Positions 2,411-48,345 of a stretch of DNA of 64,000 bases are shown piece after piece. The notes beneath the pieces are model-generated. The model was not told where the DNA came from. It searched no databases and saw only the letters and a list, made by a program, of their open reading frames with translations. Numbering within the stretch: position 1 is the first letter of the stretch; every line of letters starts with the position of its first letter. Where the stretch lies: assembly GCF_044324785.1 (NCBI RefSeq), contig NZ_CP172127.1; one strand, given 5' to 3'. This DNA comes from Escherichia coli (GTDB taxonomy: Bacteria > Pseudomonadota > Gammaproteobacteria > Enterobacterales > Enterobacteriaceae). The translations under genes were made by a program, and so were the position numbers.

Positions 2411-4066
2411 ATGACTAATCTTCCCCACTGGTGGCAAAACGGCGTTATCTACCAGATTTATCCAAAGAGTTTTCAGGACACCACGGGTAGCGGCACCGGC
2501 GATTTACGTGGCGTTATCCAGCGCCTGGACTATCTGCATAAACTGGGCGTTGATGCCATCTGGCTAACCCCCTTTTATGTCTCTCCCCAGGTCGATAACG
2601 GTTACGACGTAGCGAACTATACGGCGATTGATCCCACCTACGGCACACTGGACGATTTTGACGAACTGGTGACACAGGCAAAATCTCGCGGGATTCGTAT
2701 CATTCTCGATATGGTGTTTAACCATACCTCTACCCAACATGCCTGGTTTCGTGAGGCGCTGAACAAAGCAAGCCCTTACCGCCAGTTTTATATCTGGCGC
2801 GATGGAGAACCAGAAACACCACCGAACAACTGGCGTTCAAAATTTGGCGGTAGCGCGTGGCGCTGGCATGCGGAAAGCGAACAGTACTATTTGCATCTCT
2901 TTGCACCAGAACAGGCGGATCTCAACTGGGAGAATCCAGCGGTACGCGCAGAGCTGAAAAAAGTCTGTGAGTTCTGGGCCGATCGTGGGGTCGACGGGTT
3001 GCGCCTGGATGTGGTGAATCTGATCTCCAAAGACCCGCGTTTCCCTGATGACCTGGATGGCGACGGGCGTCGCTTCTACACCGACGGGCCACGAGCACAC
3101 GAGTTTTTGCACGAGATGAACCGCGATGTGTTTACGCCGCGCGGGTTAATGACCGTAGGTGAAATGTCCTCCACCAGCCTTGAGCATTGCCAGCGATATG
3201 CGGCACTGACAGGCAGTGAATTGTCGATGACCTTTAATTTTCATCACCTGAAAGTCGATTATCCCGGTGGTGAAAAATGGACGCTGGCTAAACCTGACTT
3301 TGTGGCGTTGAAAACATTGTTCCGCCACTGGCAACAAGGAATGCACAACGTGGCATGGAATGCCTTGTTCTGGTGTAACCACGATCAGCCGCGCATTGTT
3401 TCTCGCTTTGGTGATGAAGGTGAATACCGCGTGCCTGCGGCAAAAATGCTGGCGATGGTGCTGCATGGCATGCAGGGAACGCCATATATCTACCAGGGCG
3501 AAGAGATTGGCATGACTAACCCACATTTCACGCGCATTACTGACTATCGCGACGTGGAGAGCCTCAATATGTTTGCCGAGCTGCGCAACGATGGGCGTGA
3601 TGCCGACGAGTTATTGGCAATCCTCGCCAGTAAATCCCGTGACAACAGTCGCACACCCATGCAATGGAGCAACGGCGATAATGCCGGGTTTACGGCTGGC
3701 GAACCGTGGATTGGCCTGGGCGATAACTATCAACAAATCAACGTAGAAGCAGCGCTGGCCGATGAGTCCTCGGTGTTTTACACCTACCAAAAGTTAATCG
3801 CACTGCGTAAGCAAGAAGCCGTCCTGACATGGGGCGATTACCAGGATCTGCTGCCAAACAGCCCTGTATTGTGGTGCTATCGCCGTGAGTGGAAGGGGCA
3901 AACCTTGCTGGTCATTGCCAACCTTAGCCGTGAGACCCAACCCTGGCAGCCAGGGAAAATGCTCGGCAACTGGCAGCTTGTGATGCATAACTACGAAGAA
4001 GCCTCACCACAACCCTGTGCCATGACTTTACGGCCTTTTGAGGCTGTCTGGTGGTTACAGAAGTAA
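2411..4066 (+). CDS. treC: Trehalose-6-phosphate hydrolase (GH13 alpha-glucosidase)
   Basis: 551 aa from internal ATG (MTNLPHWWQNGVIYQIYPKSF...), GH13 motifs (DGLRLDVV, FNHT); longer ORF-track start at 2264 overlaps treB and is rejected. Confidence 0.9.
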   Translation: MTNLPHWWQNGVIYQIYPKSFQDTTGSGTGDLRGVIQRLDYLHKLGVDAIWLTPFYVSPQVDNGYDVANYTAIDPTYGTLDDFDELVTQAKSRGIRIILDMVFNHTSTQHAWFREALNKASPYRQFYIWRDGEPETPPNNWRSKFGGSAWRWHAESEQYYLHLFAPEQADLNWENPAVRAELKKVCEFWADRGVDGLRLDVVNLISKDPRFPDDLDGDGRRFYTDGPRAHEFLHEMNRDVFTPRGLMTVGEMSSTSLEHCQRYAALTGSELSMTFNFHHLKVDYPGGEKWTLAKPDFVALKTLFRHWQQGMHNVAWNALFWCNHDQPRIVSRFGDEGEYRVPAAKMLAMVLHGMQGTPYIYQGEEIGMTNPHFTRITDYRDVESLNMFAELRNDGRDADELLAILASKSRDNSRTPMQWSNGDNAGFTAGEPWIGLGDNYQQINVEAALADESSVFYTYQKLIALRKQEAVLTWGDYQDLLPNSPVLWCYRREWKGQTLLVIANLSRETQPWQPGKMLGNWQLVMHNYEEASPQPCAMTLRPFEAVWWLQK

Positions 4067-28429: not shown

Positions 28430-29341
28430 TCATACTGGTAACGCTAGTTGCTTTTTTTTAAACGCCTCAATGGTCGATTTATATTTCTCGCAAATCTTTT
28501 CTTCGGTAATATCACTATCTGCGGCCAGATTCGCACTTACTATCGCATCCACTTGTTCGGCTAATTCGACTTGTTGGCAACCTGCATTAACCAGAAAATT
28601 ATAAATAAGAGAGTAATCTTCATCCTCCAAAACAACAGAGGAACCATTACGAAAACGTTCATCCCCTCCATAGATTTTAAGCGCAAAGCCCAAAGATTCT
28701 ATGACTATGGCAAAATTATCATCAATTATTTTTTCGTAAATATACCATCCATCGCATTCTTTAATTCCACCTCCTGGAATTTGGAGGTCAAATTTACCCC
28801 GTTTTAATTTACTTACTATATCATCCAATACAGCATAACCTAAAGACACGTCACCAAACGCCTGGCGAATATAACCTTTAATCCTTTCCGGTATGTCAGA
28901 CTGTTTTTTCTGCAGAATATCCCAGGCATACAATCTTCTGTTTTGTTCTAACGGAAACTCGCGGTTTTTGAAATCCATGAATGAGTTATACTCATTTATT
29001 GTTATGGGAATTTCTTCGTATTCAAATCCACTGCCTCGCAATGTCATTATATATTCGGCACCGTTATCTTTAAGGCTGAAACTGATAAGAAACTTATCCA
29101 TGGCGTTAACAGTTTCATTTTTTGATGAAAGTACCTGATAACTATTTTTATCAATCTGAGTTGCGCAACGAAAGAACTCCCGCAAAGTTAACAGGCTATC
29201 ATAATTCGAAATCCAATCTTTTTTATTAAATGCATGCTGGATATTGTTAAAAAAATTGTTTGAATGTGTTTTTGTATGCGATGATTTTACGAATAACTCC
29301 ACCGCACCAATAAAATTATTGTGTCTGATCCTGGGTAACAT
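28430..29341 (-). CDS. ytfI: Uncharacterised protein YtfI (AT-rich orphan gene)
   Basis: 303 aa, no recognisable motifs, markedly AT-rich relative to flanks; position between ytfJ and cysQ matches ytfI. Confidence 0.7.
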   Translation of the reverse strand: MLPRIRHNNFIGAVELFVKSSHTKTHSNNFFNNIQHAFNKKDWISNYDSLLTLREFFRCATQIDKNSYQVLSSKNETVNAMDKFLISFSLKDNGAEYIMTLRGSGFEYEEIPITINEYNSFMDFKNREFPLEQNRRLYAWDILQKKQSDIPERIKGYIRQAFGDVSLGYAVLDDIVSKLKRGKFDLQIPGGGIKECDGWYIYEKIIDDNFAIVIESLGFALKIYGGDERFRNGSSVVLEDEDYSLIYNFLVNAGCQQVELAEQVDAIVSANLAADSDITEEKICEKYKSTIEAFKKKQLALPV

Positions 29342-29552
29342 ATGGCTACCTTATTTTATTTGGTTATTTTATGTCGCCATTAAATATCTCATTATAGAAG
29401 TAAACTATCAAAAAACGCTCATTATTAAAATGTAACTTATTAGCAATTGAATTTTTGCACTTTAAATACAATCTCTTTTTATTTATAACTTTTTAGGTTG
29501 GGAGAAATCAGGATGGCAGATTCAGGAAATACACTGTTTCTGCCATCTGAAT

Positions 29553-38968: not shown

Positions 38969-39599
38969 ATGAAGGATCAACCAAAAGCCAGCTAAGGAGC
39001 GTCTCTTTGATGACCTTACGTCTGGCTTCCAGTGCCTGGGGGGAAACCATACTGATATGATAAACTAGGCCAAGCGTATGCTGGTTGATCAAATAATATC
39101 CCCCAAGCGCAGCAATATTAATATTCACCTGCAATGGGTCGATATCTGGCTTAAAAATATTGTGTTTCTTCCCTTCATCCAATAAGGATTCCATTAACTG
39201 CAAGTGCGCATGGTTAATTTCTAAGAGACGCTGTGATTTTGCATAATGCACACCTTTACTTTGATTTTCACTATGCACAATTTTTAAAAACCAGGGGTTA
39301 GCAATATAATAATCCCATGTAAAATCAATAATTTTCTCAATGGCTTTTTGTGGCGGAAGATCTGAGAAATCAAGGGCCTTTTCTTTTTGTCGAATATCGT
39401 TCCAGGTATATTCCAGTACTTCAATAAATAAATTTTCTTTATTACCAAAGTGATGATAAACCGTCTGTTTACTACACCCCGCAGCCTTAACAATATTATC
39501 GACCCTGGCCCCTTCATAACCATATTCGGCAAATTCATTAACCGCGCATAACAGCAGCTTTTCCTTCAGGCTCTGTACGTTGCTGGTATCAAGATACAT
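38952..39599 (-). CDS. TetR/AcrR-family transcriptional regulator, divergent from the accessory operon (possibly the intact form of K-12 ytfA)
   Basis: 215 aa from ATG at 39599; N-terminal HTH ([23 protein letters not shown]); 3' end overlaps ytfB by about 17 nt. Confidence 0.8.
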
Positions 39600-39721
39600 A
39601 ACGCTTCCCCACGACCTCTTCAAGACAACTATCTTAACCCGATTAATTAGAAGCTCCAGTAAAAAGGATAAAAACTTGTACTTTCATCAAGTTATCAAAT
39701 GTCCTGTGATCACTATCGCAT

Positions 39722-39743
39722 ATCAACCAACCAGATGGTTGAT
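39722..39743. promoter_or_regulatory. Perfect inverted repeat ATCAACCA-N6-TGGTTGAT in divergent promoter region; candidate operator of the TetR regulator
   Basis: Verified against ORF-track translation of this region; a second repeat CTTGCG-N6-CGCAAG lies at about 39748-39765. Confidence 0.4.
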
Positions 39744-39809
39744 CTTTCTTGCGGCACGTCGCAAGCTAATTGTCACTTAGAAACAATATTCAAAAAAGAG
39801 AGCTATTGT

Positions 39810-40601
39810 ATGAAATCCACTCGTCCTGTTGCCGTGATTACCGGAGCCGCTCGTGGTATTGGAAAGGGCTGTGCGCTGGAGCTTGCTCGTGGCGGATTTA
39901 ACCTGCTGATTAACGATCGCCCCGATGATGACAGCGTAGAAAAATTACATGCCACGCAACAGGAATGTCTGGCAGAAGGTGTGGAAGTGATTTGCTTCCC
40001 TGCCGATGTCGGCGATCTCTCCTTGCATGAAGAGATGCTCGACGCGGCACAAAACCAGTGGGGACGTCTGGACTGCCTGCTCAACAACGCAGGCATTTCA
40101 GTGAAAAAACGCGGTGACCTTCTCGACCTCGAACCAGACAGCTTCGACCAAAATATTGCCATTAACACCCGCGCACCGTTCTTCCTCGCTCAGGCATTCA
40201 GTAAGCGCTTACTGGCACAGCCGAAACCGGAAGCAGAACTGCCGCACCGCTCGATTATTTTTGTCAGTTCCATCAACGCCATCATGCTGGCGATGAATCG
40301 CGGCGAATATACCATTGCCAAAACTGCCGTCTCTGCCGCTGCTCGTCTGTTTGCTGCTCGGCTTTGTAATGAACAAATTGGCGTTTATGAAGTGCGTCCT
40401 GGTCTCATCAAAACCGATATGACTATTCCGGCAACGGCCTATTACGACGAACTGATTGCCAAAGGTCTGGTGCCGTGGGGACGTTGGGGTTATCCGGCTG
40501 ATATTGCTTCCACTGTCCGCGCGATGGCGGAAGGTAAACTGATTTACACCTGTGGTCAGGCGGTTGCCATTGACGGCGGCTTAAGTATGCCGCGTTTCTG
40601 A
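39810..40601 (+). CDS. Short-chain dehydrogenase/reductase (classical SDR, FabG-like)
   Basis: 263 aa; TGAARGIGKG cofactor motif, NNAG, catalytic Y-x3-K (YTIAK); RBS AAAGAGAG upstream. Confidence 0.8.
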   Translation: MKSTRPVAVITGAARGIGKGCALELARGGFNLLINDRPDDDSVEKLHATQQECLAEGVEVICFPADVGDLSLHEEMLDAAQNQWGRLDCLLNNAGISVKKRGDLLDLEPDSFDQNIAINTRAPFFLAQAFSKRLLAQPKPEAELPHRSIIFVSSINAIMLAMNRGEYTIAKTAVSAAARLFAARLCNEQIGVYEVRPGLIKTDMTIPATAYYDELIAKGLVPWGRWGYPADIASTVRAMAEGKLIYTCGQAVAIDGGLSMPRF

Positions 40602-40610
40602 GGCTGAATC

Positions 40611-41453
40611 ATGAGAGATCTGTTACAACGCCCGGATTTATTCAGTATCAATACCGCGACACTGGGCTATAAAACGCCGCTTCCCGCCATTATTGATGCC
40701 TGCGCCGCACGCGGTATTGGCGCAATTGCCCCCTGGCGCAGGGAGTTGCAGGGTGAAGATCTCCAGCAAATCGCCCGCCAGCTTGCCGCCAGTAAGATGA
40801 ACGTTTCCGGTTTGTGCCGTAGCACTTACTACACCGCGCCGACACTGGCGGAACGCAAACTGGCGATTGATGATAACCGCCGGGCGCTGGACGACGCAGC
40901 GGTGCTTAACGCCGCCTGTTATATGCAGGTGGTTGGCGGGTTACCGCAGGGAACAAAAGATTTGTACGAAGCGCGGGAACAAGTAAAACAAGGGATTCGC
41001 CAGTTGCTGCCACATTCGAAAGATGTCGGCGTGCCAATTGCGCTGGAGCCGCTGCACCCGATGACTGCTGCCGACCGCTCTTGCCTGTGCACGTTACGTC
41101 AGGCGCTGGACTGGTGTGATGAACTCGATCCCGATGGTGAGTTTGGCCTCGGCGTAGCGGTAGATGTCTACCATGTCTGGTGGGACCCGGATCTCGCCAG
41201 CCAACTCCAGCGCGCCGGAAAACGCATCCTCGCGTTTCATGTTTCCGACTGGTTAGTACCAACCACCGATCTGGTCAATGACCGTGGAATGCCGGGAGAT
41301 GGCGTCATCAATATTCCGTCAATTCGTCGGCTGGTTGAAAACGCCGGATTTAATGGCGCTATTGAACTGGAAATATTCTCGCCGTACTGGTGGCAAAAAG
41401 ATATTAACAGCACGCTGGATATTAGCGTCGATCGCATCGCGCATTATTGCTAA
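40611..41453 (+). CDS. Xylose-isomerase-like TIM-barrel enzyme (sugar-phosphate isomerase/epimerase or dehydratase superfamily)
   Basis: 280 aa; conserved metal-ligand-like positions (LEPLHP, HVSDW, ELEIFS); starts 9 nt after SDR stop. Confidence 0.75.
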   Translation: MRDLLQRPDLFSINTATLGYKTPLPAIIDACAARGIGAIAPWRRELQGEDLQQIARQLAASKMNVSGLCRSTYYTAPTLAERKLAIDDNRRALDDAAVLNAACYMQVVGGLPQGTKDLYEAREQVKQGIRQLLPHSKDVGVPIALEPLHPMTAADRSCLCTLRQALDWCDELDPDGEFGLGVAVDVYHVWWDPDLASQLQRAGKRILAFHVSDWLVPTTDLVNDRGMPGDGVINIPSIRRLVENAGFNGAIELEIFSPYWWQKDINSTLDISVDRIAHYC

Positions 41454-41462
41454 GGAATGATT

Positions 41463-42239
41463 ATGAGTGACCAACCCGTTCTGTTCAGCAGAGCGGCGGC
41501 TTCCTGCCGTCTGACATTGAACCGTGAAGATAAATGTCATGCTATTAATGAAGAGATGATTGAATCTCTCGATCATTATTTAAATGAAATTGAAAACGAC
41601 ACCACATTACGATTAGTCGAATTAACGGCAACCGGCGATAAATTCTTTTGTGCGGGCGGCGATATTAAATCGTGGTCAGCCTATTCGCCATTAGATATGG
41701 GCAGAAAATGGATTAAACGCGGTAATGACGTTTTTAATCGCCTGCGCAACTTACCCCAATTAACCGTTGCAAATCTCAACGGTCATACCATCGGCGGTGG
41801 TATTGAACTTGCTTTGTGCTGCGATATTCGTATTGCCCGTCCCGGCGCGAAATTCTCTAACCCGGAAGTGATGCTCGGCATGGTGCCTGGCTGGATGGGC
41901 ATTGAACGTGTGCTTAATCAGGTCGGTCCGGTGGTCGGTCGCCAGATGCTGATGCTGGGTAAACGCCTGACGGCGCGGGAAGCTCAGGCGGCGAATTTAA
42001 TTGATGAAGTGGTAGAAAAAGAACAGGTGGAAAGCTGGATGGCGAACCAGTTAGCGCAGCTGGAAAAATGTGGTCCGGTGGCGCTCGCACATATCAAGCA
42101 ACTGATTCTGGCACTGGAAAATAAACATGCCGATTACCCGCACCAGCTACTGGCTGGATTAATGTCCGCCACTCAGGATTGCCAGCAGGCGACGCGCGCG
42201 TTTGCCGAAAAAAGTAGCGTGAGCTTCCACAATCAATAA
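41463..42239 (+). CDS. Enoyl-CoA hydratase/isomerase (crotonase fold)
   Basis: 258 aa; oxyanion-hole segments FCAGGDIKSW and NGHTIGGGIELALCCDIRIA; start taken at second ATG, 6 nt after AAGGA. Confidence 0.8.
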   Translation: MSDQPVLFSRAAASCRLTLNREDKCHAINEEMIESLDHYLNEIENDTTLRLVELTATGDKFFCAGGDIKSWSAYSPLDMGRKWIKRGNDVFNRLRNLPQLTVANLNGHTIGGGIELALCCDIRIARPGAKFSNPEVMLGMVPGWMGIERVLNQVGPVVGRQMLMLGKRLTAREAQAANLIDEVVEKEQVESWMANQLAQLEKCGPVALAHIKQLILALENKHADYPHQLLAGLMSATQDCQQATRAFAEKSSVSFHNQ

Positions 42240-42248
42240 GGAAATTGT

Positions 42249-43790
42249 ATGCGTAAGATAACAACCGCCGAGGCACTGGCGGCGCAAATTCAGGACGGCG
42301 CAACCATTGCCATTAGCGGTAACGGCGGCGGCATGGTGGAAGCTGACCATATTATGGCCGCCATTGAAGCGCGTTTCCTGCAAACCGGACACCCTCGCGA
42401 TCTGACATTGATCCACTCGCTGGGTATTGGCGATCGCGACAGCAAAGGCACTAACCGTTTTGCTCACGCCGAAATGCTCAAACGCATTATTGCCGGACAT
42501 TTTACCTGGTCGCCCAAGATGCAGGAACTGGTGAAAAGCAATGCTATTGAAGCCTACTGTTTCCCTGGTGGCGTGATTCAGGCGTTGCTACGGGAGATCG
42601 GTGCCGGACGTCCGGGGCTTTTTACCCACGTTGGGCTGGGATCGTTTGTTGATCCACGCAATGGCGGCGGTAAGTCGAATGAATGCACTACCGACGACCT
42701 GGTAGAACTGATTGAAATCGACGGTGAGACCAAACTTCGTTATCGCCCTTTCAAAGTGGATTACGCGATTTTGCGTGGCACTTATGCCGATCCACGAGGC
42801 AACGTTAGCCTCGAAGAAGAAGCGATTGATATGGATAGCTATTCGATGGCGCTGGCAGCACACAACAGCGGTGGCAAAGTGTTCGTACAGGTACGCGATG
42901 TGCTGGAAGCAGGTGCCATTGAACCACGCCGGGTTAAATTACCGGGGATTCTGGTTGATGGCATCGTTGAACACCGCGAACAGCCACAAACCTATCTTGG
43001 CAGTTACGACCTGACCATCAGCGGCCAACATCGCCGTCTGAGTTCTAACGACGCTATTGAGCTGGTTAGTCATCCGGTGCGTCGCCTGATTGCCCGTCGG
43101 GCAGCGCGGGAACTGGTGGCAGGCGCTTCAACCAACTTTGGCTTTGGTATTCCCGGCGGCATTCCAGGAGTAGCGCTGCGCGAAGGCGTGCCTTACCAAA
43201 GTTTATGGCTGAGCGTCGAGCAAGGCGTGCATAACGGTATGATGCTGGATGATGCGTTTTTCGGCTGCGCCCGCAACGCCGATGCCATTATTCCATCACT
43301 CGATCAATTTGAGTTCTACAGTGGTGGAGGGATCGATATCACCTTCCTCGGCATGGGAGAGATGGATCAGTACGGTAACGTCAACGTATCCCATCTCAAT
43401 GGCAATCTGATTGGCCCCGGCGGATTTCTCGAAATTGCGCAAAATGCCCGTAAAGTGGTGTTCTGCGGCACGTTCGACGCTAAAGGCAGCAAAATCGATA
43501 TAACGCCAGATGGCTTGCATATCGCCCAGTCAGGTCAAATCCCTAAACTGGTTACCCAGGTGGAAAAAATCACTTTTAGCGCCGCCTACGCACAGCAAAG
43601 TGGTCAGGAAGTGTTGTATATCACTGAGCGCGCAGTATTCCAGTTAACGGCAGAAGGCGTTGAATTAATTGAAATCGCGCCGGGTGTAGAGATTGAGCGC
43701 GACATTCTGCCGTTCATGGCTTTCCGTCCAATTATCAAGCACCCACGCCTGATGGAAAGTAGCCTGTTTACGCCGATGGAGGATGCATGA
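42249..43790 (+). CDS. Family-I CoA-transferase, fused alpha/beta subunits (YdiF / propionate-CoA-transferase-like)
   Basis: 513 aa; N-terminal ISGNGGG and later SGGGIDITFLGMGEMDQYGNVNVS segments typical of 3-oxoacid CoA-transferases. Confidence 0.75.
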   Translation: MRKITTAEALAAQIQDGATIAISGNGGGMVEADHIMAAIEARFLQTGHPRDLTLIHSLGIGDRDSKGTNRFAHAEMLKRIIAGHFTWSPKMQELVKSNAIEAYCFPGGVIQALLREIGAGRPGLFTHVGLGSFVDPRNGGGKSNECTTDDLVELIEIDGETKLRYRPFKVDYAILRGTYADPRGNVSLEEEAIDMDSYSMALAAHNSGGKVFVQVRDVLEAGAIEPRRVKLPGILVDGIVEHREQPQTYLGSYDLTISGQHRRLSSNDAIELVSHPVRRLIARRAARELVAGASTNFGFGIPGGIPGVALREGVPYQSLWLSVEQGVHNGMMLDDAFFGCARNADAIIPSLDQFEFYSGGGIDITFLGMGEMDQYGNVNVSHLNGNLIGPGGFLEIAQNARKVVFCGTFDAKGSKIDITPDGLHIAQSGQIPKLVTQVEKITFSAAYAQQSGQEVLYITERAVFQLTAEGVELIEIAPGVEIERDILPFMAFRPIIKHPRLMESSLFTPMEDA

Positions 43791-45859
43791 GTCAGCTTGA
43801 TGACACCATCCTTGATGCGCTGACGCACGTCACTTTCCCAAAGGGGTTTGTGTCAGCAGAGCCAACGTCAATTGTCACCGTTGAGGATGTTGATTACCCG
43901 ATCTGGCAAGTTGATGCGCTGGTCGTTGGTAGCGGCGCAGCAGGATTACGTGCGGCAGTTGAACTTAAACGCCGCCAGCAAAATGTGCTGATCGCCACCG
44001 CCGGGTTATATATGGGGACGTCGGCATGTTCTGGTTCCGATAAACAGACGTTGTTTACCGCCGCTACCGCGGGCAACGGCGACAACTTCGCCAAACTGGC
44101 AGAGGCACTTGCGAGCGGTGGGGCGATGGATCACGACACCGCTTATGTCGAAGCGGTAGGTTCTCTGCACACTCTTGGCGGGTTGCAATATCTTGGTCTG
44201 GAATTACCGGAAGATCGCTATGGCGCGATTCTTCGTTATCAAACCGACCATGACGAAGCCGGGCGTGCAACCTCGTGTGGGCCGCGTACCTCAAGGTTAA
44301 TGGTGAAAGTGCTGCTGGAAGAAGTACAGCGTCTTGCTATCCCAATGTTGACCAGTGCAACAGTGATTAAACTGCTGCATCAGCGTGACGAAAACGGCGA
44401 AGACCGCGTGGCGGGGGCTATCCTCGCGACCGGTCATCGCGCCCATAACCCATGGGGGCTGGCAATTGTGATTGCGCCCAATGTGGTACTGGCAACAGGA
44501 GGGCCTGGCGAGCTTTATCGCGACAGTGTGTACCCACACAAATGTTTCGGCTCGCTGGGTCTGGCGCTGGAGGAAGGTCTGACGCTAACGAATCTGACTG
44601 AAAGCCAGTTTGGTATAGGCACACCGCGCAGCACGTTTCCGTGGAATTTGTCCGGGACTTATGTACAGGTGATCCCATATATCTATTCCGTGGATGCTGA
44701 GGGTAACGAGTATAACTTCCTCGCGGATTACTATCGCACCACCCAGGAGCTGGCTTCAAACATTTTCCGTAAAGGCTATCAGTGGCCGTTCCACGCCACT
44801 CGGGTGATGGATTTTGGCTCCAGCTTGTTAGATATGGCAGTAGCGCAAGAGCAGCAATCAGGGCGTCAGGTATTTATGGATTTCAATCGCAATCCTGAAG
44901 CGGTGCCGGGTGACCTGCCCTTCTCATTAGATCGACTGGACGACGACGTTCGCGCGTATCTGGAAAATAACGACGCTCTGGCACCATCGCCCATCGAACG
45001 GCTGCAACGAATGAATCCGCTGTCTATCTCGCTGTATAAGATGCACGGTTACGATCTCACCACACAGCCATTGCAGTTTGCCATGAATAATCAGCATATG
45101 AATGGCGGCATTGAAGTCGATATCTGGGGACAAACATCTCTACCCGGTTGTTTTGCAGTGGGGGAAGTTGCTGGCACACACGGCGTCACCCGACCTGGCG
45201 GCGCGGCATTGAATGCCGGGCAGGTTTTTGCTGTTCGTCTGGCACGTTTTATTGGTTGCACGCAAAAGCGGAATATTGATGGAGATATAGCACAGCTGGC
45301 AGCTCCGGCACTGGCTTCTATAAGAGAGATCATTACTCAGGCGCACGATAACGGGACCGGGATGCCGTTGTCGGTTGTGAGAGAAAAAATTCAGGCACGA
45401 ATGTCTGACCATGCGGGATTTATTTGTCATGCCGATAAAGTCCGACGCGCCACTCGTGATGCCCTGCTATTGAACGAATTTGTCCAACGGCATGGATTGG
45501 CAATCAAACATGTGGGTGAAGTTTCCGAGCTGTTTATGTGGCGGCATATGGCGCTGACTTCTGCCGCGGTATTAACACAATTAACGCATTATATTGATGC
45601 TGGTGGCGGCAGTCGTGGGGCGCGGATGGTTATTGATCCACAAGGCAAATGCCTACCACAAACTCGTCGCGGCGTAAAAGAAGAATGGCGTTTTCGCTCT
45701 GAACTCGCTGAAGATAAAAATCACAAATTAACAATTCAATATTCGCAAGGTTCTTTTATTACCGAAGTAAAGTCTTTACGTATGCAACCGTGTATTAACG
45801 GTATTTACTTTGAAAAAAACTGGCCAGACTTTTTAAAGGGAGACATTTACACACAATAA
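43787..45859 (+). CDS. FAD-binding oxidoreductase of the fumarate-reductase/succinate-dehydrogenase flavoprotein superfamily
   Basis: 690 aa; dinucleotide fold VVGSGAAGLRAA, later GEVAGTHGVTRPGGAALNAGQVFAVRLARF; ATGA overlap with upstream gene. Confidence 0.75.
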   Translation: MSQLDDTILDALTHVTFPKGFVSAEPTSIVTVEDVDYPIWQVDALVVGSGAAGLRAAVELKRRQQNVLIATAGLYMGTSACSGSDKQTLFTAATAGNGDNFAKLAEALASGGAMDHDTAYVEAVGSLHTLGGLQYLGLELPEDRYGAILRYQTDHDEAGRATSCGPRTSRLMVKVLLEEVQRLAIPMLTSATVIKLLHQRDENGEDRVAGAILATGHRAHNPWGLAIVIAPNVVLATGGPGELYRDSVYPHKCFGSLGLALEEGLTLTNLTESQFGIGTPRSTFPWNLSGTYVQVIPYIYSVDAEGNEYNFLADYYRTTQELASNIFRKGYQWPFHATRVMDFGSSLLDMAVAQEQQSGRQVFMDFNRNPEAVPGDLPFSLDRLDDDVRAYLENNDALAPSPIERLQRMNPLSISLYKMHGYDLTTQPLQFAMNNQHMNGGIEVDIWGQTSLPGCFAVGEVAGTHGVTRPGGAALNAGQVFAVRLARFIGCTQKRNIDGDIAQLAAPALASIREIITQAHDNGTGMPLSVVREKIQARMSDHAGFICHADKVRRATRDALLLNEFVQRHGLAIKHVGEVSELFMWRHMALTSAAVLTQLTHYIDAGGGSRGARMVIDPQGKCLPQTRRGVKEEWRFRSELAEDKNHKLTIQYSQGSFITEVKSLRMQPCINGIYFEKNWPDFLKGDIYTQ

Positions 45860-45951
45860 TTTTCAATATTTCCTCTGTACCTGATTTTTATTGCCTATTA
45901 CATGGAAATACCAACAACCAGGGTTTATTAATATAATTAAAAGGTTTAAAA

Positions 45952-47229
45952 ATGAATAAAATAAAGAATTATCGATGGCATATGATTGCCCTCGTATGCT
46001 TTATCACTGTAATCAATTATCTGGACAGAACGGCGTTAGGTATTGCGGCTCCAACGATTATGGAGACAACCGGAATAACTAAAGAGCAATATTCATGGAT
46101 TGTCAGTGCATTCCAGTTGGCCTATACATTAGGGCAACCGGTAATGGGCTTCTTTATTGATACCGTGGGTCTGAAGTTAAGTTTTGCGATATGTGCCGCA
46201 ATTTGGGGCCTGGCGACAATGGGCCATGCACTAACCGGAACGTGGTCTGGTCTGGCATTTATGCGCGCCCTGATGGGTTTCAGCGAAGCGTCGGCAATTC
46301 CGGCGGGTGTAAAAACCGCATCAACATGGTTCCCGGCAAAAGAGCGTGGCGTGGCGACAGGTGTTTTCAATATGGGCACCTCACTCGGCGCGATGCTTGC
46401 TCCACCGTTGATTGCCTGGTGCATTATGTTTCATAGCTGGCAATTTGCGTTTATTGTTTCAGGTAGCCTTGCTTTGCTCGCGGCTTTATTTTGGTTCTTT
46501 TGTTATAAAGATCCGAAAGATGCCAAACGCCTTTCTGATGAAGAGCGCCACTATATTGAATCAGGGCAAGAACAGCATCTTAAAACAGATAAGAAAGAAA
46601 AAACGTCAATCAAGCATATCCTCAGCCAACGTAATTTCTGGGGGATTGGCATCGCGCGTTTTCTCGCAGACCCGGCATGGGGAACCATTAACTTCTGGGT
46701 GCCGATTTTCTTCGTCGAAACGCTGCATTTTAGCCTGAAAGAAATTGCCATGTTCGTCTGGCTGCCTTTCCTGCTGGGCGATCTCGGCTGTTTAGCCAGT
46801 GGTTTTGTCGCGAAGTTCTTCCACGATCGCGGCGTGAGTTTAATTAACTCACGAAGAATTACCTTCACTATTGCAGCCGTCATTATGATGACGATTGGCC
46901 TGGTGAGTATTGTCGAAAATCCCTACATTGCCGTATTACTGATTAGTATTGGCGCGTTCTCGCATCAATGTCTTTCTACTGTAGCAGCAACTCTGGGTGG
47001 CGATCTGTTCAAAAAAGACGAAGTAGCTACCGCAGTGGGTATGGCAGGAGCCTGTGCGTGGAGCGGTCAGTTGATTTTCAACCTGTTCATCGGGGCATTC
47101 GTTCACATTATCGGCTTCGCGCCGTTCTTTATTGCCCTGGCTTTCTTTGACATTATTGGTGCTATTGCGTTGTGGACGCTTATCAAAGTTAAAGATGAAG
47201 AACCGCAAGTACAGCTAGCTACCCATTAA
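45952..47229 (+). CDS. MFS transporter, anion:cation symporter (ACS) family, ExuT/DgoT-like
   Basis: 425 aa; N-terminus NYRWHMIALVCFITVINYLDRTALGIAAPTIME and FPAKERG loop resemble hexuronate/aldonate transporters. Confidence 0.85.
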   Translation: MNKIKNYRWHMIALVCFITVINYLDRTALGIAAPTIMETTGITKEQYSWIVSAFQLAYTLGQPVMGFFIDTVGLKLSFAICAAIWGLATMGHALTGTWSGLAFMRALMGFSEASAIPAGVKTASTWFPAKERGVATGVFNMGTSLGAMLAPPLIAWCIMFHSWQFAFIVSGSLALLAALFWFFCYKDPKDAKRLSDEERHYIESGQEQHLKTDKKEKTSIKHILSQRNFWGIGIARFLADPAWGTINFWVPIFFVETLHFSLKEIAMFVWLPFLLGDLGCLASGFVAKFFHDRGVSLINSRRITFTIAAVIMMTIGLVSIVENPYIAVLLISIGAFSHQCLSTVAATLGGDLFKKDEVATAVGMAGACAWSGQLIFNLFIGAFVHIIGFAPFFIALAFFDIIGAIALWTLIKVKDEEPQVQLATH

Positions 47230-47242
47230 TTATTTTAAATAA

Positions 47243-47272
47243 AAACGCTATAATTGAGGTTATGGCGTTTTT
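47243..47272 (+). terminator. Probable rho-independent terminator after the MFS transporter gene
   Basis: AAACGCTATAA...TTATGGCGTTT stem (one G-U pair) followed by T-run. Confidence 0.4.
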
Positions 47273-47499
47273 AAAGAAGCTTGAGTTATCGAACCTCGCT
47301 TACCAACGCGTTGTCAATCATATCCCCCCTCCCTGCTGCATCGTTATATCCACAATGAGCGATTTTTGATATTAATATCTTTCACCATCCGCTATTTTCA
47401 CTACTTCAGAAAACAAACTTATTTTTATTAATATCGATTCTTTATTCTGTAAACATTCAGCTGAGATATTTATAAAAACATTAAACAGGCAACGATACA

Positions 47500-48294
47500 A
47501 TGACATTACCAACCACTATTTATTCATTTCCTGCATATTCACCCCGTTTTTCGTCCACCGACAAACCAGTAAAATTAAAATTTCATCAATACGCACGCGC
47601 TACATTACTTTCAAATCGTGGAAGAGATCATAATTGCGATGGCAGACATACTGTTGAGATCCACAAACTAGATCTCTCAGACTGGCAAGCATTCAATAAA
47701 CTAGCGATGGCGTGTAATGCTTACGATGGAATAACAATGAATGGTGATAATTCTTTTGGATGGAACCATGAAGCTACATTAGATAATATTCACGCCCAGA
47801 AATACAATAAAGCTTACGCGGGTGCGAGGTTAACCGCAGAACTGAAATATTTATTGCAAGATGTCGAATCCTTCGAACCCAACAGTAAATACACAATACA
47901 CGAGGTTGTTTTGGGTCCAGGTTATGGTACTCCAGACTATACCGGCCAAACGATAGGATACGTTGTAACCCTTCCTGCCCAAATGCCTAATTGCTGGTCA
48001 TCTGAACTACCAACAATCGATCTTTATATCGACCAACTTCGCACTGTTACAGGCGTTTCTAATGCCCTCGGATTCATCATTGCTGCATTGCTAAACGCGT
48101 ATTCTGATTTACCCCATGATTTGAAAATTGGTCTGCGTTCCTTATCAAGTTCAGCAGCAATCTACTCGGGTTTGGGTTTCGAGCGAGTGCCGCAGGGCCG
48201 AGACATAAGGTGCGATCATATGCATCTAACGCCAGCAAACCATCCTGAATTATGGACACAAGAGAATGGTGAATGGATCTACTTGCGAAACTAA
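47500..48294 (+). CDS. yjfZ: Uncharacterised DUF2686-like protein YjfZ (AT-rich gene)
   Basis: 264 aa, no motifs recognised, preceded by 270-bp AT-rich spacer; position next to rplI matches yjfZ. Confidence 0.7.
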   Translation: MTLPTTIYSFPAYSPRFSSTDKPVKLKFHQYARATLLSNRGRDHNCDGRHTVEIHKLDLSDWQAFNKLAMACNAYDGITMNGDNSFGWNHEATLDNIHAQKYNKAYAGARLTAELKYLLQDVESFEPNSKYTIHEVVLGPGYGTPDYTGQTIGYVVTLPAQMPNCWSSELPTIDLYIDQLRTVTGVSNALGFIIAALLNAYSDLPHDLKIGLRSLSSSAAIYSGLGFERVPQGRDIRCDHMHLTPANHPELWTQENGEWIYLRN

Positions 48295-48317
48295 TACCTG
48301 ACGAAAAATAGAAAGCA

Positions 48318-48345
48318 AAACGCCGACCACTGGTCGGCGTTTTTA
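48318..48345. terminator. Bidirectional terminator between yjfZ and rplI
   Basis: ACGCCGACC-ACTG-GTCGGCGT followed by TTTT. Confidence 0.55.

Follow-up and report, generated by a model that had tools for sequence, protein, structure and literature searches.

The Escherichia accessory gene yjfZ and a candidate GNAT-like fold for its DUF2686 family

We analysed a 64,000-nucleotide stretch of the Escherichia coli contig NZ_CP172127.1 (hereafter the window), focusing on yjfZ, an AT-rich gene on the plus strand at positions 47500-48294. The first-pass annotation of this DNA had presented it as the uncharacterised gene yjfZ, in agreement with RefSeq, where it bears this name and its product is listed as a 'DUF2686 family protein', a family of unknown function. 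The proposal that yjfZ is an Escherichia-specific accessory gene, silenced by H-NS and encoding a divergent GNAT-fold protein, stands in our estimate evenly poised between true and false. yjfZ is an already catalogued and annotated E. coli y-gene, and the only new element is the link between DUF2686 and the GNAT fold, a modest lead that comes from low-confidence but consistent structural models.

A predicted GNAT-like fold for YjfZ

YjfZ is encoded by the sole long open reading frame (ORF) at the site, which has an ATG start and 264 codons for amino acids. The protein matches the Pfam profile DUF2686 (PF10887) with 500.6 bits (cut-off 25; E = 1.3e-150), and its residues 5-264 align to positions 17-285 of the 285 in the profile. 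The same profile is matched by 7/7 scanned family members. A product with no recognisable motif, as first annotated, is thus only partly right, since the protein has this match, although the function of the family is unknown. YjfZ has no N-terminal hydrophobic stretch and is therefore probably cytoplasmic.

Two AlphaFold2 models were obtained, one from a three-sequence alignment (mean predicted local distance difference test score (pLDDT) 34.6, predicted template-modelling score (pTM) 0.34) and one from a seven-sequence alignment (mean pLDDT 41.3, pTM 0.43). Their confidence is low because the alignment amounts to about five effective sequences. The seven-sequence model predicts, in its first part, a strand at residues 51-57, helices at 62-75 and 107-120, and strands at 132-139 and 150-158. 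In the second part a strand at 175-182 is followed by a helix at 189-200, a strand at 210-212, a helix at 216-224, and strands at 227-230 and 242-245. The GNAT core has the topology β1-α1-α2-β2-β3-β4-α3-β5-α4-β6-β7, and the order of elements in this low-confidence model is the same. The three-sequence model shows a broadly similar order, without the α4 helix (216-224) and with an extra N-terminal strand.

A Foldseek search of the PDB, with the low-confidence model as query, returned GNAT-type acyltransferases at all of the top 36 positions and GNAT-fold proteins at nearly all of the top 50, with E-values from 4.5e-3 upward and probabilities up to 0.97. The best structural matches are HAT1 (2p0w and 1bob), PanZ (4cry, the second-best), AAC(6')-Ie (4qc6) and AAC(6')-Ib (1v0c).

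Two conserved stretches of the family may correspond to GNAT signature motifs. The most conserved block, IDxYIDQxxTVxGVxNxxGFxxAALLNA, would comprise β4, the pyrophosphate loop and α3 of the model. It contains T-V-[TS]-G-V-[SA] at residues 182-187, which reads T-V-T-G-V-S in YjfZ and T-V-S-G-V-A in its paralog YjiC, with G185 invariant. This may be a variant of the acyl-CoA (coenzyme A) pyrophosphate-binding loop Q/R-x-x-G-x-G/A (motif A), located between β4 and α3 in GNATs. Further downstream, Y222-x-x-x-G-F in YjfZ and H-x-x-x-G-Y in YjiC are a candidate equivalent of the GNAT α4 motif Y-x-x-x-G-F, which carries the general-acid tyrosine. The N-terminal ~50 residues of YjfZ contain a conserved motif, RGxxHNxDG, for which no counterpart was identified.

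YjfZ could be a highly divergent GNAT-fold protein, in which a family-specific N-terminal region (~1-50) precedes a GNAT core (~50-264). Such a protein might bind acyl-CoA and either acylate some amine substrate or act as a CoA-sensing regulator like PanZ, a GNAT that works as a CoA-dependent regulator and not as an enzyme. The models lead us to lean slightly towards a GNAT fold for the DUF2686 protein YjfZ, and to hold true acyltransferase activity as less probable than the fold itself.

Several results weigh against this assignment. Both models are poor, with no residue reaching a pLDDT of 70, and template-modelling scores (TM-scores) between the YjfZ model and GNATs are only 0.24-0.44. Pfam searches at E <= 10 with the seven members returned DUF2686 alone and no GNAT family (e.g. 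PF00583, PF13508, PF13673), and a profile search against PDB sequences returned no GNAT. Alignment of the family with a RimI alignment by hhalign gave a probability of 0.2%, from two shallow profiles, a comparison of low power because the RimI set is 83-100% identical. The candidate loop has T in place of the Q/R of motif A, and the presumed catalytic tyrosine is a histidine in YjiC. AlphaFold may, moreover, be defaulting to a common α/β fold.

On another reading, DUF2686 would have a new or non-GNAT α/β fold, the GNAT matches would be an artefact of low-confidence modelling, and no function could be read from structure. We consider this unlikely, since models from separate alignments, searched with two programs, converge almost only on GNAT, the predicted order of helices and strands equals that of GNAT element by element, and the two candidate signature motifs occur at the expected positions and spacing within conserved blocks.

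Family, distribution and selection

The first-pass annotation had also described yjfZ as an orphan, which is overstated, as yjfZ belongs to a Pfam family and has a paralog, YjiC. The two proteins are 41% identical over residues 40-262 (E = 6e-58), and RefSeq names YjiC a 'YjfZ/YjiC family protein'. A word-index search of 5.8 billion protein clusters with YjfZ recovered nothing but YjfZ of E. coli and, from E. albertii, a protein of 273 aa (43% identity), whose gene lies between uxuR and iraD, the position of yjiC in E. coli. With YjiC as query, every protein recovered came from Escherichia or Shigella, and some were variants at 62-69% identity. NCBIfam, PHROGs, PADLOC and PDB sequence searches with YjfZ gave no match.

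An exhaustive search with a HMMER profile, which covered 1.84 billion representative proteins, gave only 32 matches. All but one are Escherichia-type sequences of 50-166 aa, and the remaining one is a weakly matching repeat protein (P0038, 893 aa). At 30-50% identity the fragments could have been taken for divergent relatives; alignment shows them to be frameshifted, truncated or misassembled pieces of YjiC or YjfZ, so the family alignment gained no depth from them.

When the GTDB representatives of 100,044 species were scanned, with a single genome per species, the family was found only in E. albertii and in a contig of a 'Collinsella' metagenome-assembled genome (MAG). This 1,283-bp contig (JAIJJM010000835.1, 'MAG: Collinsella sp.') encodes a YjfZ 100% identical to that of the window, preceded by a K-12-type ytfA remnant, and is plainly E. 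coli DNA contaminating an actinobacterial MAG that serves as a GTDB representative. As judged from these searches, the YjfZ/YjiC family is confined to Escherichia.

Within E. coli, yjfZ is present in 2,538 of 5,426 complete genomes (47%), near full-length at 95-99% identity in 2,513 of them, and yjiC in 4,900 of the same genomes (90%) as well as in E. albertii. Distribution across strains, which the first-pass annotation had named as a check, is thus that of an accessory gene, and with a presence of only 47% among complete genomes yjfZ serves poorly for marking the species. The 'YjfZ' quantitative PCR (qPCR) primers of PMC11057252 match yjiC, with 0 and 1 mismatches for forward and reverse (locus L009, positions 3304-3417, strain AUSMDU00014361), and no site for the forward primer is present in the yjfZ-bearing window even at 3 mismatches. 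To judge from these primer matches, the published 'YjfZ' assay seems to target yjiC, which would explain near-universal detection despite the limited distribution of yjfZ.

At the same locus, yjiC of E. albertii (L005, 3490-4956) and E. coli (L009, 2441-3863) share ~69% DNA and 62% protein identity. These values look well below those typical for orthologs of the two species, and the YjfZ/YjiC family therefore appears to evolve unusually fast.

Comparison of seven intact yjfZ alleles (21 pairs) gave a mean nonsynonymous divergence (dN) of 0.0156, a mean synonymous divergence (dS) of 0.0527 and a dN/dS of 0.30. Between the YjfZ and YjiC paralogs, 68 columns are invariant at ~40% identity. From both observations, yjfZ is a real coding gene under relaxed purifying selection. 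The annotated start codon is supported by the M-[TS]-x-P N-terminus that the two proteins have in common. The dS of yjfZ (0.02-0.07) falls within the range of its neighbours in the same genomes (0.04 for the MFS gene, 0.07-0.17 for ulaE), and its dN is 4-7 times theirs. Given synonymous divergence equal to that of the neighbours, yjfZ looks like a gene that has resided in E. coli about as long as those flanking it and has often been lost or replaced, rather than a recent import.

yjfZ is absent from 53% of complete genomes, its dN/dS is 0.3, and two of the nine alleles sampled carry an annotated frameshift. These facts show the gene to be dispensable, a point against the main reading. Taken further, yjfZ could be an evolutionary relic, silenced and nearly cost-free under H-NS, with a roleless protein whose GNAT likeness is ancestral or spurious. 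Its replacement or deletion in several independent ways, the excess of dN at similar dS and the lack of any phenotype or function in the literature found mentioning the gene agree with such a history. We nevertheless regard it as doubtful. The dN/dS is clearly below 1, near full-length copies are retained in the 2,513 genomes mentioned above, and the 68 invariant positions are arranged in blocks despite the low identity of the paralogs, which calls for long-term selection on the protein.

A reported phenotype and an expression response of the paralog also speak against a relic. In one atypical enteropathogenic E. coli (EPEC) strain, neither biofilm nor pellicle formed after a transposon insertion in yjiC (PMC4100040), and yjiC was induced 11-fold by azidothymidine (AZT), a replication stress, independently of LexA (PMC11228462). 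These results suggest that the family has a role related to stress or surfaces, one that does not transfer automatically to yjfZ. Somewhat short of even probability, we place the wider view that DUF2686 is a genus-restricted, fast-evolving GNAT branch beyond the reach of sequence methods, whose members would be H-NS-silenced acyltransferases or PanZ-like CoA sensors with a role in stress or biofilm formation, yjfZ being the strain-variable second copy.

Composition, transcription unit and H-NS

The spacer between the stop codon of the preceding MFS gene (47229) and the yjfZ ATG measures exactly 270 bp (47230-47499), so that both the spacer and the ORF have the lengths first annotated. The GC content is 0.326 in the spacer and 0.423 in the ORF (0.355 at third codon positions), compared with 0.513 for the window. 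These values lie in the bottom 0.8% of 270-bp segments and the bottom 4% of 795-bp segments of the window, respectively, and the low GC of spacer and ORF is not a chance fluctuation. The first-pass annotation had set a clear domain assignment and a host-like composition against its own interpretation; a domain is assigned yet uninformative, and the composition is not host-like on calculation. GC is lowest in the window at ~28430-29500 (0.26-0.34 in segments of 270-1,065 bp), an even stronger deviation than at yjfZ, and this stretch may be the ytfI region to which the same annotation had compared yjfZ.

The spacer consists of two parts. Its first ~100 bp are the 3' flank of the MFS gene and a terminator-like hairpin on the plus strand (47240-47273; 14-nt arms, a 6-nt loop and a subsequent T run; inverted repeat with 93% complementarity), which fills the first ~45 bp. 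Because this stretch is missing upstream of yjfZ in K-12-type genomes, the hairpin is assigned by comparison to the operon on the left and not to the yjfZ unit. In other genomes, as an alignment of nine shows, yjfZ is accompanied only by the ~165-195 bp that immediately precede its ATG. By blastn with the K-12 locus and related sequences, homology restarts at 47331 in K-12 and O55:H7 and at 47305 in strain 755. The resulting AT-rich upstream region (47331-47499, plus strand) is near-identical in the nine aligned yjfZ genomes, whatever sequence precedes it, and is presumed to hold the yjfZ promoter and the H-NS-bound region.

This conserved part of the leader contains a palindromic motif, (T)ATTAATATC, in two copies (47368-47379 and 47424-47435) 56 bp apart, at which a regulator may bind or H-NS may nucleate. 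A TATAAA hexamer is located at 47471-47476, 24 bp before the ATG. A scan for the sigma-70 consensus found no promoter in the leader and a single match inside the ORF. Two other roles for the leader were considered and rejected: as an RNA element it matches no Rfam family at threshold and folds like shuffled sequence (z = -0.12), and as a source of a leader peptide it offers a 35-aa ORF (47262-47369) that shares sequence with the MFS terminator and is contained only in part in the DNA that accompanies yjfZ.

Downstream, a terminator scan detected a perfect hairpin with 13-bp arms at 48317-48343, starting 22 bp past the yjfZ stop codon. Its arms are 100% complementary, runs of A and T flank it on either side, and it is a bidirectional terminator for yjfZ on the plus strand and rplI on the minus strand. 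Since the 165-195 bp leader is kept regardless of the DNA farther upstream and the terminator is common to both genes, yjfZ is a stand-alone accessory gene with its own leader and a terminator shared with rplI.

The first-pass annotation had suggested regulation by H-NS. In the survey of Shimada et al. 2014 (PMC3946193), the K-12 yjfZ/ytfA spacer is classed as type-A, with an RpoD holoenzyme site, and is marked 'HNS', which denotes an H-NS site by in vitro genomic SELEX (systematic evolution of ligands by exponential enrichment). The yjfZ-proximal ~170 bp of that spacer are also present in the window. The leader of yjiC figures among the H-NS-bound 'promoter islands' of PMC3661553, and a genomic SELEX peak for FlhDC lies between yjfZ and ytfB (PMC9962212). 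Two points temper the suggestion: H-NS binding upstream of yjfZ is known in vitro only and in K-12 only, and a literature search found neither expression data nor in vivo ChIP or hns-mutant data for yjfZ. The H-NS high-affinity consensus TCGATAAATT is not enriched in the yjfZ leader.

By analogy with other AT-rich genes, H-NS would polymerise on the leader and ORF and keep yjfZ largely silent in vivo, and the gene would be expressed only under particular conditions. Regulation by H-NS is plausible as first annotated, and the predicted silencing is well motivated.

A polymorphic site beside rplI and comparison with known systems

The window derives from the E. coli chromosome, with matches at 95-99% identity in thousands of complete E. 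coli genomes. It carries, in this order, ytfB, the gene of a TetR-family regulator, a catabolic operon of six genes, yjfZ, rplI-rpsR-priB-rpsF, yjfY and the ula genes. The left neighbours of yjfZ encode an MFS transporter and a FAD-binding protein, in an operon missing from K-12, and rplI follows on the right in convergent orientation, which bears out the position between an accessory operon and rplI given in the first-pass annotation.

Comparison with the K-12 locus by blastn delimits the segment missing from K-12 to 39355-47330 (7,976 bp, plus strand). It contains the part of the TetR-regulator gene that encodes the N-terminus, together with the operon, whose genes encode a 3-ketoacyl-ACP reductase, a sugar-phosphate isomerase, an enoyl-CoA hydratase, a CoA transferase, the FAD protein and the MFS transporter. 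This segment forms one half of the variable region, and yjfZ the other. K-12 has ~103 bp of unrelated filler in its place (L002, 5891-5994), and, as it lacks the segment, its pseudogene ytfA is by comparison a truncated TetR gene, the scar of an 8-kb deletion.

Six states of the site were found among the complete genomes. The MFS-type operon and yjfZ occur together, as in the window, in 289 of 5,426 genomes (5%), a rare state. yjfZ is kept and the operon deleted in ~2,250 of 5,426 (2,538 minus 289), of the K-12, O157, O55 and O111 types. The operon is followed by a hipA/helix-turn-helix (HTH) toxin-antitoxin module in place of yjfZ in 1,047 of 5,426, which are B2 strains such as O18:H1 and Nissle 1917. 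In ~1,446 of 5,426 the operon ends in a TRAP transporter adjoining rplI, without yjfZ. In the last two states the MFS gene directly adjoins rplI, or yjfZ is truncated by an insertion sequence (IS). The state with both operon and yjfZ could be ancestral and the others derived by deletion or replacement.

Individual loci illustrate these states. The hipA and HTH genes lie between the MFS gene and rplI in an O18:H1 strain (L007, 10421-12184) and also in Nissle 1917, and the hipA copy of strain CFSAN067215 is annotated as frameshifted. A three-gene TRAP transporter (L008, 3098-5942) ends an otherwise homologous operon from which the MFS gene has been swapped out. In several K-12-type configurations, those of O55:H7 and related strains (L013, L014 and L015, positions 1-145), an IS200/IS605-family (IS609) tnpA adjoins what is left of the truncated TetR gene upstream of yjfZ, and in strain 2017.06.04CC (L003) ISKpn26 has removed most of yjfZ.

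All states are identical from AAAGCAAAACGCCGACC, at the rplI terminator (~48312 in the window), where conserved core DNA restarts. At this terminator AAAGCAAAACGCCGACCA.TGGTCGGCGTTTTT adjoins four different left contexts (L006, L007, L008 and the window). An edge of the variable region, as proposed in the first-pass annotation, is thus present here, with yjfZ as the last variable cassette rather than a marker of the core. The site just past the rplI terminator is a clean example of alternative cargo between lineages.

No integrase, transposase or IS ORF adjoins yjfZ in the window, and no tRNA gene is found within 36-52 kb. Apart from the 10-nt GGCGTTTTTA, whose copies are the 3' arms of the two terminators, no flanking repeat occurs. 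Simple deletion between the two GGCGTTTTTA copies was considered for the junction of the MFS gene and rplI without yjfZ (L006) and rejected, as the hairpin there differs. No phage copies of yjfZ were found, and its nine 'plasmid' matches are all non-mobilizable, with lengths of 0.37-4.9 Mb that resemble chromosomes or chromosome fragments. Cargo of a mobile element was rejected on these grounds. Together with the lack of homologs outside Escherichia and the neighbour-like dS, they leave no sign of the proposed horizontal acquisition as a recent event.

A toxin-like or conflict effector, for instance a GNAT toxin acetylating aminoacyl-tRNA or another target, is an improbable identity for YjfZ: the toxin-antitoxin module at its site, the GNAT toxins (7byy and TacT3, 6g96) and GNAT anti-CRISPR AcrVA5 among the structural matches, and the patchy distribution and fast evolution typical of conflict genes point that way, but the toxins come far behind HAT1 and PanZ in the ranking, PADLOC, PHROGs, phages and mobilizable plasmids offer no counterpart, and the type II GNAT toxins (TacT/AtaT/KacT) have ~160-180 aa and a co-transcribed small antitoxin, whereas YjfZ is much larger and has no conserved partner gene, the upstream small ORFs being only 21-35 aa (plus strand; the 35-aa one partly in DNA not conserved with yjfZ) and 46 aa (minus strand), with nothing between yjfZ and its terminator.

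For a specialist, an AT-rich, H-NS-bound and patchy y-gene is not surprising, such genes being common in E. coli. Both yjfZ and yjiC still count among the K-12 genes of E. coli that lack a function. The GNAT/acyl-CoA assignment, if true, would give a biochemical class to two long-standing y-genes and an example of 'orphan' genes as extremely diverged members of old folds. With the predicted fold, experiments can concentrate on the binding of CoA, on the acetylome or the acylation of metabolites, and on derepression in hns mutants.

yjfZ resembles the H-NS-silenced xenogeneic genes in being AT-rich relative to the genome, patchy in distribution and associated with an H-NS site in the K-12 spacer; the low GC of leader and ORF (0.326 and 0.423 against 0.513) is that of such genes. 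It differs from them in showing no sign of a foreign donor or mobile vehicle. As the family is found only in Escherichia and its dS is as old as that of the neighbours, 'foreign' may be the wrong word for its origin.

The closest comparison is with yjiC, which is similar in length (276 aa), has an AT-rich ORF (GC 0.40) and a more AT-rich leader (GC 0.30), and is likewise an Escherichia-only gene. In contrast to yjfZ, yjiC lies at another locus, between uxuR and iraD, is far more widespread and has some published phenotype and expression data, and the two leaders show no DNA similarity to each other.

With respect to the GNAT superfamily, YjfZ lacks Pfam GNAT profile similarity and the Q/R of motif A, and the likeness rests on low-confidence models. 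This likeness comprises the predicted order of elements, the near-exclusive structural matches, the G-x-[SA] loop after β4 and Y/H-x-x-x-G-[FY] in α4. YjfZ further resembles HAT1 in having an extra N-terminal region before the predicted core.

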